The notes beneath the pieces were generated by a model. The model was not told the DNA's origin, did no database searches, and saw nothing but the letters and a program-made list of their open reading frames with translations. Positions 42,825 through 49,786 of a stretch of DNA of 64,000 nucleotides are shown piece after piece. This DNA is from an uncultured Acidimicrobiaceae bacterium. Lineage in GTDB: Bacteria; Actinomycetota; Acidimicrobiia; Acidimicrobiales; Bog-793. Every line of letters begins with the position of its first letter. The stretch's first letter is position 1. Location: NCBI GenBank assembly GCA_963761425.1, contig CAVXGQ010000005.1, positions 452,699 through 516,698 on the forward strand, read 5' to 3'. The position numbers and the translations under genes were made by a program.

Positions 42825-42905
42825 GGCGAGCCGGCCTGTAGGCGGGAAGCTGTCCAGCGCAGTCGAGTTACCTACGGTGGCCGGGATATGGGTTCCTGAC
42901 CTGCG
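42825..42905 (-). repeat. Diverged duplicate of the rnpB 3' terminus (P2-3'/P4-3'/P1-3' strands); putative distal att remnant
   Basis: 42825-42855 is 28/31 identical to 49439-49469. Both copies have GGTGGCC about 20 nt further on, and weaker similarity continues to about 42905. The hairpin between these elements is not conserved. Confidence 0.65.
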
Positions 42906-42977
42906 ATTACAACTCACCATTGAAGCGGTGGGTGCCAGTGCGGGCACGGGGAAGGCGCAGAGGCTGGGGAGGTCGGT

Positions 42978-43793
42978 TCAGAGTTGTGGGGCGGCGGCGG
43001 CTGGTTCATTCATTTCAAGCCACGAGCGGTGCCAGAAGAGGCCGCAGTTGCGGTCGCAGTGGCCCCCTCGAGGTTGGCCCGAGCAGCGAACGCCGTCGAG
43101 GATGAAGAAGGCGGCACGGGGCTGCTTCCACTTGGGAAGAGTGACGCCGATGTCCTCGACCTGGCGCACGACCGGGAATTCACGGCCGGCATATGCGGCC
43201 ATTTCCGGGGAAAAGCTGATCCCGTCGAGGCGTCCTTTGGCGTCCAAGGTCGCGGCGATCTCGCCGTAGGGTTTCACCTTGGCAGTTTGGGTGAACGCAC
43301 GGGGCTCGGACTCCTCCGCCCGGGATGGCTCCAGCCATTCGTCCAGGAAGAACAACGAACACGCATGACCACAGCCGACAGTACCGTCGGGCGCGTCACA
43401 GATAGCGTCCTCTAGTGCGACCGTCCTGGAGAGCTTCTCCATGCGATAAGCATGGGTCGGCCGCCGGCGAATGACCCTTTCTACCCGGTAGGTCCGGCCC
43501 GAGTAAGCCCGGTGGTTGGAGAGGAACTTCCGACCGCGGAGCTCGTCGTTGCTATCGAGGGTCGTCCGGATCTCAGCGACACTCTTGACTCGGACCCAGT
43601 CGCCGACATGGAAGCGGGACGGTTCCCCGAGATCGACGCCGTCCCGGTCCTCGACGCGATGGCCGACGAGGAGCTGCAGAGTGTGAATGACTCCGTGTAT
43701 GAGGTTGAAGGGAAACGCGTAGCGATAGAACGAGTTCTCAAACTGGCAGCGTTCAAAGGTGCGTCGTCTTGGTGCTGGTCCCGCGGGGTCCAC
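42978..43793 (-). CDS. Hypothetical protein with two tandem ~95-aa Cys-motif modules
   Basis: 271 aa. Module 1 is GDWVRVKSVAEIRTTLD..YSGRTYRVERV..CGHACSLFFLDEWLE. Module 2 is AKVKPYGEIAATLD..YAGREFPVVRQV..CDRNCGLFWHRSWLE. Unbiased composition. Confidence 0.6.
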   Translation of the reverse strand: MDPAGPAPRRRTFERCQFENSFYRYAFPFNLIHGVIHTLQLLVGHRVEDRDGVDLGEPSRFHVGDWVRVKSVAEIRTTLDSNDELRGRKFLSNHRAYSGRTYRVERVIRRRPTHAYRMEKLSRTVALEDAICDAPDGTVGCGHACSLFFLDEWLEPSRAEESEPRAFTQTAKVKPYGEIAATLDAKGRLDGISFSPEMAAYAGREFPVVRQVEDIGVTLPKWKQPRAAFFILDGVRCSGQPRGGHCDRNCGLFWHRSWLEMNEPAAAAPQL

Positions 43794-44004
43794 CGGGTCG
43801 ACGCTATCAGGTGCTTCCGTTCGTCATACTCGGCGGAGTTTGTTCTCCCGAGTTCTGGATCGGGGGAATCGGGGAATCGCCGTCGACCCGCGAAACATAG
43901 AGAGGGTCGGTGACGTACTAGTTGGCTGGTCGGCAAAAGGCTTTTCTCGTCCAATAAGAACGATGGTCGCTGTTTGGAGCTGAGGAGGTGACCTCTCTCA
44001 GCCA

Positions 44005-45140
44005 ATGACGCCAGGTAGGCGCCCGATCCGGTCCAAGTTGAGCGCTGCAACCCGGATTTTCGCCCAGGCGTCGGCCTTCGCAAGGCCCGGTTACGGGATC
44101 TTCTCGGTGTGGAACTTGAGCTGTGCGTTCTTGCGCTCGGCACTTGCGCGTTCTCGATAGCGCTCTCGGAACCCCTCGGTCCATTGCGCTGTTCGTGCCG
44201 CGGCGAGTAGCTCCTCTGACGGATTGATCTCGGCGATGCGGCCCTTGGCGCGGGTCGTGTATTGGGGTTTCAACGCGCAGTCCGCGCAGTGTTCACTAAA
44301 GAACACTTGGGTGCGCTTCGCTCGGCTTTTCGCGATCGGGACGCTCACTCCCGCAGAAGGGTGACGGTGTGGTGCTCGAGTTCGATCGTGAAGTCAGCTT
44401 TGTTGAAAAAGCCTGCTCTCGCGCTCGGCGGAGGCGCCGGTGCGACGAGCTCCACGCCTTTTGCTCCGAAGGTGCGCCGGATCTTTGACCCTCCGTAGTG
44501 GGTGTCGGCGATTACCTCCGAGACGGGAAGCGGATCGGACTCGAGCAGCTCAGCGAGCATCTCACCGTCCGACGTCGTTGCCTTCGAGGCCGTCGCCGCG
44601 GTAATGAGGTCGAAATCGGGATCGACCGAGAGATGTGCTTTGAACCTGTCATAACGGTCGTGGCGTGCACGGTACCCATGGTGAGCGTCAGGATCGACGA
44701 TCGAGATCTCCCGATCGGGGGCGACCTCACGCCTGATCGTGACGTTGTCCTTCTCGTCGGGGGCGAGGTCCTGTGCGGCGACGATGTGCAAGAGGGCGAC
44801 AGCCGCGTTCAAGTCGTCGTCGATCGACGCTGCCTGCACGATGATCGCGGTCGCGTCCGAGAAAAGATCGGCGAGCGGCTAGCGGCGCTCGGTTTCCTGG
44901 GACCAGTTGATCTCGGGCTTTCCCGCCTCGTCATAGACGGAACGCCGGAGCGAGCCGCGAAGTCTTGACGTTCTTCGCTTGTCGAGCTTTGAAAGACGAG
45001 AGATGACCTGGCGCGAAGCCGATCGCATCAAGGTAATCGTGTCCATCGTGATGACGCCGTCTTTGATGTCGGTCGAATCGACGATCCGACGGTGACCGAT
45101 GGTCCCGGCACGCTTGGCGAGCTGAAGGAGCTTTCTGGAC
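44005..45140 (-). pseudogene. IS5/IS1182-family DDE transposase pseudogene (5'-truncated, at least 3 frame breaks)
   Basis: Colinear pieces lie in different frames. They are RIVDSTDIKDG..DTITLMRSA, then DPDAHHGYRARH..FKAHLSVD..ADTHYGG, then FSEHCADCALKPQYTTRAKGR..ERKNAQLK, then GLAKADAWAKIRVAALNLDRIGR. Confidence 0.75.
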
Positions 45141-47625: not shown

Positions 47626-47671
47626 GCTGGGCGGATGGGTTCTCGGCACCCACACCTCCGAGCGCCATCTG

Positions 47672-48682
47672 TCAGGGCTTCGTCGTGGCCCGTCGCGTCC
47701 TGGCTTCCCCAAGGCCGAGTGCAATGACATCGCGGCAAAGTCCGAGCGCCCCGAAACCGCCCCGTGACCTGCGGCAGAAGTCTCCACAGACCAGCTGCGA
47801 AAACAGCTTGCGCGAAGCGATGAGGCGATCCGAGGACTGATGGACGCTGGCGCGTCGCAAGCACCGAGCTGTGACTTTGGAGAAATACTCGATCGCGCGG
47901 GTGTTATGCGGATCGCTCGCGGCAACAAAGCTCCCGTAACTCTTGGCGAGGGCGGCCTTCTCGGCATAAGCGGTTGGCTCGATGCTGAATGCTGCCTTGA
48001 ACTTCTCGGCCGCACTGTAGGTTCGTGCCGGACCGGCGAAATTCATCTCGTGCTGGCGGTAGGAGACCAAGGCATCGCTTAGTTCGAGTCGGCGGCAACT
48101 CGTGAATGCCAGCAGTGATATCACTCCGTCGAAACCCGGTCCTCTCGGGTCGTCCGGGTTCGGCCGCTTCTCCCAGCAAGTCATTCTCAGCAACTCAGAC
48201 CGAAAGTACTGGGTGAAGCCTGGAGCGCACCACAACCAGTCACCCTCGAGCGGGTCGACGACACGCGTCCGCTTGTGGCAAGGGAAAAGCCGGCCCGTCG
48301 ACGCGAGGTCTTCGTCTGTGACCACAGCCGAATGGCTGATGAACTGCACATTGTGCATCGCCATCTGGTGCTCACAGATCTGCAGCTTCTTCGGATGCCA
48401 GACGTCGTCTTGGTCGCACCACGCGATGACCTCGGTGTTGGCATGTTGCGCCGCGGACCAGAAGTTCGCGTCCGGCCCCGCGTGAGGGCCATCGACGAGC
48501 GTCACATTGAAAGGAGCATCCCTGGCGAACTCCCGAACGATGGCAACCGTATCGTCGCTAGAACCGTCATCGGAGATAATCAGCTGATCTGGATGCCGCG
48601 TCTGCGCAGCGATGCTCTGGAGTTGCGCTGCGAGCCAGGCCTGCCCATTGAACGTCGCCATGATGACAGCAACGGTGGGCAA
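47672..48682 (-). CDS. Family 2 glycosyltransferase (island-borne)
   Basis: 336 aa. TTG start with GGAGG RBS. VIMATFNGQAWLAAQLQSIAAQT, ISDDGSSDDT and DQDDVWHPKK (DXD) motifs. AT-richer codon usage than the core genes. Confidence 0.8.
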   Translation of the reverse strand: MPTVAVIMATFNGQAWLAAQLQSIAAQTRHPDQLIISDDGSSDDTVAIVREFARDAPFNVTLVDGPHAGPDANFWSAAQHANTEVIAWCDQDDVWHPKKLQICEHQMAMHNVQFISHSAVVTDEDLASTGRLFPCHKRTRVVDPLEGDWLWCAPGFTQYFRSELLRMTCWEKRPNPDDPRGPGFDGVISLLAFTSCRRLELSDALVSYRQHEMNFAGPARTYSAAEKFKAAFSIEPTAYAEKAALAKSYGSFVAASDPHNTRAIEYFSKVTARCLRRASVHQSSDRLIASRKLFSQLVCGDFCRRSRGGFGALGLCRDVIALGLGEARTRRATTKP

Positions 48683-49438
48683 AGCGCTTTACCTCCGGCG
48701 AATATGTCCAGGTGACTTCTTAGCACGACGGGTATGCAAGTGCCGCAAGAAACGAACTGGAGGTTCCGTTCTGGTGATCATGACGAAACCGCCAGGTTCA
48801 CTCGGCAACGGCCATACATCGATGTCCGCGTCGCTGGGACGGTAGCCGACGGATGGCACGGTCCCTGGAATAGGAGTCTCGCCGACCTCGACGCAACCTC
48901 ACCGACCGCGCCGCCTCAGTCACCGAGCACTCTTGCGAGCAAACCTGCACCTGCGTGCGCATGTCCAGCTTCCAGGCATGCTCAAGGACCAGCGGCGGTG
49001 CGACGCCATCGTTGCAGCGAGTCAATGTGACACGGAAGTGTCAACACGAGCGGGCAGTCTTTGAACAGGACATTCGTGCAAGTCAGAGGCTGTCGCGCAG
49101 GTGCCTCGGCGAACTCTAGGACCACCGATCCGCAACGCAAGACGTGACCATTTGACCATTTATTGTCAGGAAGTCGACAGGATTCGTCCGAGTTTGAGCG
49201 AACGCGCCCGGAATTTCCCTTACGCGATGGCGAGATGGTGTTTTCGCGCCTTCAGGAGGTTGTTGACTGAACAGATGAAGCGCCACTCGCTCAGTGTTGC
49301 CTCACGAAGTCAGCGGCTCCTTGTCGTCGAGCTGGTAGTGGGTGCGGTTCGCTCACGCTGAGGCGTTTGTCTCGATCTTGATGTCGTCGGCAGGACTGTC
49401 GGGATTCATGCGACAGCCTCGTCAGACCCCAAAAGTGC

Positions 49439-49786
49439 GGCGAGCCGGCCTATAGGCGGGATTCTGTCCCCGAAGCGGATCGCTTCGGGGGGTGGCCATC
49501 CATCTATGCGGCCTACCTGGGGACATCGGACGGGCAGCCCGTCCCACGCTTGGCCTTGCTCCGGGTGGGGTTTACCGAGCCGGTCGGGTCACCCCGACCG
49601 CTGGTGCGCTCTTACCGCACCGTTTCACCCTTGCCTGTGCCCTGGGGCCATCGGCGGTCTGCTCTCTGTTGCACTTTCCTTCGGGTCACCCCGACTGGCC
49701 GTTAGCCAGCACCCTGCCCTACGGAGTCCCGACCTTCCTCGGAGGAGATGTGGAACACCCCTTCGCGGCCACCCGGCCGGCTCGCC
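49439..49786 (-). ncRNA. rnpB: RNase P RNA (bacterial type A)
   Basis: The reverse complement reads GGCGAGCCGGCCGGGUGGCC...GAGGAAGGUCGGGACUCCGUAGGGCAGGGUGCUGGCUAACGGCC...AGUGCAACAGAGAGCAGACCGCCGAUGGCC...GGUGAAACGGUGCGGUAAGAGCGCACC...CCCCACCCGGAGCAAGGCCAAG...ACAGAAUCCCGCCUAUAGGCCGGCUCGCC. The P1 5' and 3' strands pair over 12 bp. Confidence 0.92.

Follow-up and report, generated by a model that had tools for sequence, protein, structure and literature searches.

A probable integrative-element remnant at the 3' terminus of rnpB, the RNase P RNA gene, in an Acidimicrobiales genome

The rnpB–eno locus and its repeated gene end

The subject of this report is a 6.6-kb island that lies between rnpB, the gene for RNase P RNA, and eno in a 64-kb stretch of DNA (contig CAVXGQ010000005.1; the whole stretch is called the window) from an Acidimicrobiales metagenome-assembled genome (MAG), whose enolase reaches no more than 84% identity with the enolases of species representatives. 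Exact look-ups of this enolase gave no recorded match. A copy of the 3' end of rnpB stands at each boundary of the island, and both junctions were observed directly. The loci of relatives are named by L numbers (L001, L017, L081 etc.), and attL and attR denote the two ends of the island as we read them. The features on which the argument is built are the following.

41407..42666, minus strand: eno, flanking gene
42667..42823, minus strand: native rnpB-downstream flank and eno leader, attached to eno; homologous to the rnpB–eno spacer of L081, L017 and L001
42824..42855, minus strand: attR (P-O-B'), the displaced native rnpB 3' end fused to an element arm
42856..49437, no strand: island interior, a mosaic of low GC content that has no recombinase gene; missing in L081, L082 and L017
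49417..49428, minus strand: arm motif GGTCTGACGAGG, followed by a hairpin; element-derived, 9–20 nt past the rnpB 3' end
49437..49784, minus strand: intact rnpB; Rfam RF00010, 247.4 bits over model positions 1–367
49438..49469, minus strand: attL (B-O-P'), the copy within the functional gene, from the P4-3' strand to the P1-3' strand plus the RNA 3' end
49453..49461, minus strand: inferred crossover interval in attL, between the mismatch sites; plus strand TAGGCGGGA, RNA UCCCGCCUA

With Infernal, rnpB was recovered as a full-length RNase P RNA gene of bacterial type A (E 2e-79), without any non-canonical pair flagged in the P1 helix. Its score falls in a range comparable to that of the rnpB genes of relatives (239–255 bits), to which it is 92–94% identical, or 88% in the case of L093. 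The match to the full model bears out an earlier interpretation made from the letters of the window alone (hereafter the sequence-only reading), which had described the gene as intact on the minus strand. An extra hairpin of this RNA, situated between the P2-3' and P4-3' strands (49470–49492, minus strand), occurs at the same position in L001, L017, L081, L092, L093 and L096, and it varies by compensatory changes, e.g. CCCCGAAGCG/CGCUUCGGGG vs. CCCCGGAACG/CGUUCCGGGG, which supports a real helix in this lineage.

As had been claimed from the sequence alone, the 31 nt at 49439–49469 recur in the same orientation at 42825–42855 with 28 of 31 positions identical, and no such match was seen in 100 shuffles of the window. 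An independent repeat finder delimited the pair as 32 nt (42824–42855 and 49438–49469; 29/32 identical) at a spacing of 6,614 bp. The looser rnpB similarity that was thought to continue from the distal copy to about 42905 had to be rejected, since MAFFT gave nothing convincing past 31–32 nt and Infernal reported no RNase P RNA at E ≤ 10 when 42600–43300 was scanned; the heptamer GGTGGCC noted beyond the repeat is present as an isolated match. No tRNA or tmRNA gene was found within 40000–52000.

Insertion by a transposon or insertion sequence (IS), whether as a composite transposon or through IS-driven rearrangement, with the repeat as a target-site duplication or an IS end, would agree with the three IS-family transposase remnants inside the island, but every one of these transposase genes is truncated or split. 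Target duplications of IS elements are far shorter than 32 nt, and an imperfect repeat of this length is too long to be one. The repeat finder detected no inverted repeats at the interval ends, nor do the ends show a short (2–14 bp) target-site duplication. Further, the repeat is rnpB sequence, with two occurrences in the window and a single one in each of 94 further loci compared; it is not an IS end, a possibility that the sequence-only reading had itself raised, and we regard this origin as extremely unlikely.

The flanks of the island are core genes, as had been stated earlier: eno, a gene of unknown function and a pyruvate phosphate dikinase (PPDK)-like gene border it towards one end, while xseA, xseB and a gene for a reductase border it towards the other. 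In relatives the empty site was observed directly. The closest relative found (L081, L082; XseA 86% identical) has the order PPDK, orf295, eno, 147 bp, rnpB, xseA, and in L017 rnpB ends 320 bp upstream of eno; eno therefore adjoins rnpB (147–320 bp) in these island-free loci, which is the arrangement anticipated if the island were an insertion. The stretch of 157 bp that separates the distal repeat from eno is homologous to this native spacer. Taken together, the empty site and the homologous spacer place the 6.6 kb as an insertion between rnpB and its native downstream flank. As a separate observation on the flank, the xseA gene of the window (50148–51486, plus strand) is frameshifted somewhere within 50599–50900, and xseA is split in L081 too and intact in L001; the split could be a long-read assembly error or a real disruption.

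The inserted DNA is foreign in composition. Its GC content is 0.628, against 0.698 ± 0.012 (minimum 0.675) for all other 6.6-kb windows of the 64 kb, which is 6 standard deviations lower and agrees with the AT-richer interior described from the letters. It was also seen that the PPDK/phosphoenolpyruvate-synthase-like region at 37750–40500 has a GC content of 0.63–0.67, below its surroundings, and is nonetheless syntenic in L081; low GC alone is therefore no proof of foreign origin here.

The mismatches between the two copies bear on how the insertion was made. At the repeat, all five relatives compared (L001, L017, L081, L092 and L093) read GGACAGAAUCCCGCCUACAGG (short form ACAGAAUCCCGCCUACAGG). 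The functional gene of the window reads ..ACAGAAUCCCGCCUAUAGG.., with the ancestral AA on the 5' side (49462–49463) and a derived U on the 3' side (plus-strand A at 49452, where all five have C), while the distal copy reads ..ACAGCUUCCCGCCUACAGG.., with a derived CU on the 5' side (plus-strand AG at 42848–42849) and the ancestral C on the 3' side. This reciprocal chimerism is directly observed. Because ancestral and derived states switch between the copies, the exchange would have taken place between the mismatch sites, within the 9 nt UCCCGCCUA (plus-strand 49453–49461 and 42839–42847), and the pattern is what recombination of a chromosomal attB with a slightly different attP would be expected to leave.

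The distal copy had been taken for a decayed, non-functional duplicate that lacks the hairpin of the real gene. This view does not hold: over all 23 nt from the core onward, the copy matches L017 and L081 without a difference, and so has the native 3' end of relatives. Changes in the functional gene together with a native 3' end in the dead copy are the opposite of what decay of a dead duplicate predicts, and the part of the distal copy 5' of the crossover is element DNA that never was rnpB. Conversely, the terminal ~15–23 nt of the rnpB gene of the window probably derive from the element. The derived U changes the innermost G-C pair of P1 to G-U, a change compatible with a functional gene.

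One could also suppose that the 6.6 kb are ancestral and that L081 and L017 lost them by deletion between the repeats, the empty site being secondary. Occupancy is common in the clade, since among seven related loci there are four (L001, L092, L093 and that of the window) in which DNA other than eno follows rnpB; however, the occupants are mutually unrelated except for the arm next to the att site, and the GC content of the island is foreign. The derived base stands in the functional gene and the ancestral one in the non-functional copy, an incoming attP being needed either way, and a loss between att sites would itself be excision of the same element. Ancestral presence is thus a very unlikely account of the locus, and insertion of foreign DNA at the rnpB 3' end remains our preferred one.

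Tyrosine integrase genes beside rnpB in relatives

Integrases abutting rnpB were observed directly in relatives: at L093, L099, L100, L101 and L122, convergent tyrosine integrase genes stop 26–74 nt from the rnpB 3' end. The L093 integrase, frameshifted and recognized through Phage_int_SAM_3 and Phage_int_M matches, lies beside rnpB in a stretch called gene-free and ends ~50 nt from the RNA 3' end. Further loci were found via homologs of its N-terminal part and their contexts, with these arrangements (int, integrase gene; ORF, open reading frame):

L100: HTH_17 (excisionase-like) gene, orf152, int, 72 bp, rnpB 3' end; int and rnpB convergent
L099: arrangement as in L100; the rnpB end recurs 5.5 kb away
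L101: RepSA-type replication gene, HTH_17 gene, int, 62 bp, rnpB
L096, L097 and L098: phage capsid gene, HTH_17 gene, int, one cargo ORF, rnpB, xseA

In L096 the cargo ORF separates int from rnpB by 2.2 kb. The 5.5-kb element of L099 (JGI Ga0643863_0005386, 5021–10589) carries int, an HTH_17 excisionase-like gene and a fragment of a capsid gene. Its two att sites share a perfect 32-nt block, CAGAAGCCGGCTTACAGGCCGACTCCCCCTGC (CAGAAGCC..CCCCCUGC), that extends from CAGAA to just beyond the 3' terminus of the RNA. The element, lying between rnpB 3' repeats, is thus complete and matches the intact island with an integrase beside rnpB that the sequence-only reading had led one to look for. At 3865–3933 of L101, a group II intron domain match (RF00029, 40.3 bits) was seen inside the element beside rnpB, which resembles actinomycete integrative and conjugative elements (AICEs).

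Scanning of viral contigs with an alignment of these integrases yielded L122 (IMGVR_UViG_3300042206_000109, 3001–4361), a provirus. Its tyrosine integrase gene encodes 360 aa without interruption, shows 61% identity to the L096 enzyme and stops 26 nt short of the 3' end of rnpB, which scores 151 bits and is cut by the contig end. Of the enzymes found, this one is the strongest candidate for an integrase that is active at rnpB. The att region of L122 differs very little from the att block of Mav1.21.RNaseP_RNA, a 21,286-bp element of Mycobacterium avium 104 mapped by TIGER (NC_008595.1: 2220283-2241568; Mageeney et al. 2020, PMC7192596, supplementary file 1), in which the 42-nt block reads g(g)aacagaatccggcttacaggccaactcgtccgcc.. 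and the tyrosine integrase gene (2220320-2221495) lies 37 bp inside the rnpB-proximal end (PMC7192596). Based on this att block and the 61% identity of the L122 and L096 enzymes only, homology of the M. avium integrase to the Acidimicrobiia family is suggested.

The rnpB 3' end is occupied in other ways as well. L001 (Acidimicrobiales MAG SPRUCE 206, the contig being that of L091) has a different, 4.9-kb insert between rnpB and eno (5108–10000), which carries a CarboxypepD_reg/Big_1 surface protein gene and, 74 bp from rnpB, the remnant of an integrase gene (its last ~50 codons, 5181–5330; 84% identical to the L096 integrase, E 1e-21). L001 has lost any distal copy of the rnpB end. The insert is an island at this site that is older or has decayed further, and L001 represents an intermediate stage of decay. 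Its homology to the island of the window is limited to rnpB plus ~20 nt, and a single island ancestral to both is neither supported nor excluded. L092 (~1–7843) and L093 (1–4610) diverge into unrelated DNA exactly at the rnpB 3' end (GCCGC|); within the 7.8 kb after rnpB in L092 there is no integrase, and cold-shock, sigma-70 and TnpB genes are found there. From these sequences, the clade appears to have a recurrent hotspot at the rnpB 3' end.

A short arm may connect the island of the window with these elements. The window, L001, L096 and L101 have the motif G[G/C]TCTGAC[C/G]AG in common, 8–12 nt beyond the end of rnpB; in the empty sites of L081 and L017 it is missing. At +9 to +20, the window, L001 and L096 have GGTCTGAC(G/C)AGG and L101 has GCTCTGACCAG; the arm of the window aligns over ~20 nt only, with 85% identity to L001. 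In addition, the rnpB of L096 carries the CCUAUAGG variant of the window gene. The limits of the repeated block also agree, running from the P4-3' ACAGAA to the RNA 3' end: GGACAG..CUCGCC in the window, CAGAAGCC..CCCCCUGC in L099 and g(g)aacagaatcc.. in M. avium. The combination of rnpB end and arm motif was found in a metagenome scan only in the contig of L001 itself, an exact-pattern scan of viral contigs for the att sequence of the lineage gave 0 matches, and the 3' 124 nt of rnpB had no blastn match among annotated phages and plasmids.

These shared limits and the arm motif bear on whether a dedicated integrase is needed at all. In a Campbell-type insertion, RecA would recombine the chromosome with a circular DNA carrying a foreign rnpB 3' fragment, and the same direct repeats and reciprocal chimerism would result, in an island without an integrase such as that of the window. 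Against this stands the length of the homology, which is only ~31 nt with three mismatches, a poor substrate for RecA. Moreover, RecA recombination would leave unexplained both why the homology extends from ACAGAA to the RNA 3' end, as in the att blocks of L099 and M. avium, and why the arm motif is common with integrase-bearing elements. We therefore find this route unlikely.

An assembly artefact, by which foreign DNA was misjoined between two rnpB-like reads of a MAG contig, was also weighed. Some of the assemblies look error-prone, and the single xseA frameshifts in the window and in L081 suggest error-prone reads. However, a 31-nt repeat would be too short to mislead a long-read assembly, and assemblies made independently, for other samples and in other projects, show the same junction structure (L099, L100, L001/L091 and L122), which makes misassembly scarcely credible.

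Contents of the island

The interior of the island was searched with Pfam at the level of ORFs and in six stop-masked frames. The following genes and gene remnants were recognized.

42978..43793, minus strand: intact conserved hypothetical gene, 271 aa, flexible-genome cargo; full-length homologs elsewhere
44025..44839 (approx.), minus strand: IS1182/IS5-like DDE transposase pseudogene in two frames; DDE_Tnp_1 and DDE_Tnp_1_6, frames -2 and -1
45150..45976, plus strand: IS256-family (Mutator) transposase pseudogene in two frames, the first ~100 profile positions missing; Transposase_mut
~46150..46440, plus strand: frameshifted trpB fragment, ~residues 110–215 of tryptophan synthase beta, between IS remnants
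~47371..47517, plus strand: IS3/IS481-type transposase fragment, C-terminal end only, weak call; rve_3
47672..48682, minus strand: intact family-2 glycosyltransferase gene (cargo); Glycos_transf_2, E 6e-21

Of the three transposase pseudogenes reported from the sequence alone, the IS256 and DDE_Tnp_1 types stand, and the third is a weak call, its rve_3 match covering profile positions 19–67 of 67 with E 0.005, under the Pfam cut-off. The Transposase_mut matches lie in different frames (positions 101–247, E 2e-24; positions 251–376, E 2e-7). The DUF772 N-terminal domain was undetected in the transposase pseudogene at 44025–44839, a full-length 480-aa relative of which is present in L089. At the DNA level, the trpB fragment matches annotated trpB genes with about 70% identity, the lowest E value being 4e-28. 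When the island DNA was compared with plasmids, the IS256 and trpB fragments alone gave matches, and no related element was found.

The glycosyltransferase gene is intact, as had been stated. The orphan ORFs mentioned alongside it need correction in one case: the ORF at 42978–43793 is a conserved hypothetical gene with homologs of 64–87% identity. These lie in IS-rich and glycosyltransferase-rich variable regions, never beside rnpB, and the gene was rejected as a marker of the element, the contexts of its homologs having no link to rnpB or integrases.

At E ≤ 1, the six-frame search gave no match to Phage_integrase, resolvase or recombinase profiles in the island, and tblastn with five integrases of the family gave no match either, in accordance with the earlier statement that no tyrosine or serine recombinase gene survives. 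Nor were the characteristic genes of AICEs, i.e. Rep (RepSA/Prim-Pol), FtsK-like Tra, Int and Xis, detected in the island. Since the integrase gene is absent here and present in L093, L096, L099, L100, L101 and L122, we classify the island of the window as a decayed remnant and not as an active element, and without an integrase neither excision nor integration activity is expected of it.

Origin of the island and rnpB as an attachment site

Cumulatively, our findings suggest, with a probability of roughly 85%, that 42824–49469 is the remnant of an integrative genetic element that was put into the 3' end of rnpB by a tyrosine integrase and then decayed. The core of the sequence-only reading, a site-specific island at the rnpB 3' end with attL, attR and a lost recombinase, is hence upheld by the empty site, the L099 element, the non-IS nature of the repeat and the composition. 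No integrase remnant is detectable in the island, and the enzyme is therefore unobserved; we infer that an integrase of the rnpB family of the relatives made the insertion.

In the mechanism that we propose, the attP of the element would have been a ~31-nt mimic of the rnpB 3' end, comprising the P4-3' strand, the linker and the P1-3' strand, and its exchange with the chromosomal rnpB inside the 9 nt UCCCGCCUA would have created the two junctions. The attL would then consist of the native rnpB body and a 3' terminus supplied by the element, which would keep the ribozyme gene intact, and the attR of an element arm and the displaced native 3' terminus, beside eno. Later, the integrase/excision module would have been lost and the interval reworked by IS insertions and deletions, the presumed outcome being a fixed, immobile island with one intact glycosyltransferase gene and one conserved hypothetical gene.

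Several points weigh against this interpretation. The chimera is drawn from just three mismatches in two clusters, and the single U could be a lineage-specific substitution. The arm motif shared with the integrase-bearing elements extends over just ~12–20 nt in the window. No recombinase or excisionase remnant is detectable in the island by six-frame Pfam search or by tblastn with the five family integrases, and its present cargo resembles none of the genes found in the intact related elements (capsid, HTH_17, RepSA), so that most of what it now holds may be secondary. Finally, all Acidimicrobiia integrase copies retrieved are interrupted, by an in-frame TAG in L101, by several frameshifts in L093 and by a frameshift common to three samples in L099/L100, and an active element of the lineage was not seen.

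Integration at structured RNA genes is familiar in the same phylum from AICEs such as pSAM2 and SLP1, which integrate at tRNA genes. Like them, L101 has a RepSA-type gene, an HTH_17 excisionase-like gene and a tyrosine integrase by att, whereas the island of the window is without detected AICE genes. More generally, islands and prophages at tRNA and tmRNA genes are known as 'tDNA' islands (Islander database, PMC4383910). As in these, a tyrosine-integrase crossover would lie in the 3' part of a structured RNA gene that the element restores, the displaced 3' fragment marks the far end and, in the related rnpB elements, the integrase lies beside the intact gene; unlike in tDNA islands, the target is the RNase P ribozyme RNA, and the replaced part includes one strand of the catalytic-core helix P4. 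Other non-tRNA structured-RNA genes that serve as attB and are restored by the element are ssrS (6S RNA; 13 cases, PMC7192596) and ffs (4.5S RNA), which was reported in 2025 as a novel, experimentally confirmed attachment site of phage phiEf11 (PMC12540744).

The ssrS and ffs cases are treated in the main text of papers; for rnpB, the sole listing is one in a supplementary table. To the sequence-only reading, rnpB was not known as a described integration site, but it is listed as a target for M. avium 104 in the supplementary table of PMC7192596, the main text of which gives ssrS alone as a new RNA target. In our literature searches on rnpB as an integration or attachment site, no main-text account of the target turned up, and none of an rnpB-specific integrase clade. 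The target is thus catalogued but barely described, and the window is a decayed new instance of it. The island of the window and Mav1.21.RNaseP_RNA share the rnpB target, an att block that starts with G(G)AACAGAA in the P4-3' strand, takes in the P1-3' strand and stops where the RNA ends, regeneration of the gene and an actinomycetotal host, and IS256-type transposases are also listed in the M. avium element. They differ in that the latter keeps its tyrosine integrase and a 42-nt att block in 21.3 kb, while the former has no integrase and a 31–32-nt imperfect block in 6.6 kb of Acidimicrobiales DNA.

Among annotated integrases, those closest to the rnpB family belong to the Arthrobacter phages Kukla and TripleJ (43–44% identity). 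At 3322–3351 of TripleJ (L102, NC_049470.1) and Kukla (L103, PQ362669.1) there is a 30-nt sequence, ACAGAACCCGGCGTATCGGTCAACCCATCC, followed by a hairpin; it lies 15 nt past the int stop codon in TripleJ and at the same locus position in Kukla, is oriented as int, and is kept in both phages while the flanking sequence varies. Over 22 nt, 21 of them identical, the block aligns with a Salmonella feature that carries the annotation 'RNA component of RNase P', and a 44-nt block of TripleJ gave no match among plasmids. From its sequence and position, it looks like a candidate attP that mimics the rnpB 3' end and would serve integration into the host rnpB. The one paper found that mentions TripleJ does not discuss integration, and the candidate attP does not appear to have been described.

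With moderate confidence, we lean towards a wider view in which a dedicated clade of tyrosine integrases of Actinomycetota uses the rnpB 3' end. It would comprise the Acidimicrobiia islands, the Mycobacterium-type provirus, probably the M. avium 104 element, and TripleJ and Kukla; each integration would swap one strand of P4 and one of P1 for element DNA, and the site would be a recurrent hotspot in Acidimicrobiales with occupants at every stage of decay.

The island of the window is itself an inert fossil, and its interest lies in the series, from complete to fully decayed elements at one locus, of which it is part. The L122 integrase and the candidate attP of TripleJ and Kukla constitute testable integrase/att pairs for a universally conserved bacterial gene. 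Tools that scan tRNA and tmRNA genes alone will miss islands at rnpB, which joins the few non-tRNA RNA genes (those for tmRNA, 6S RNA and 4.5S RNA) that serve as chromosomal attachment sites. A mobile element can supply one strand each of P4 and P1 of an essential ribozyme, and this matters for the use of rnpB as a phylogenetic marker.

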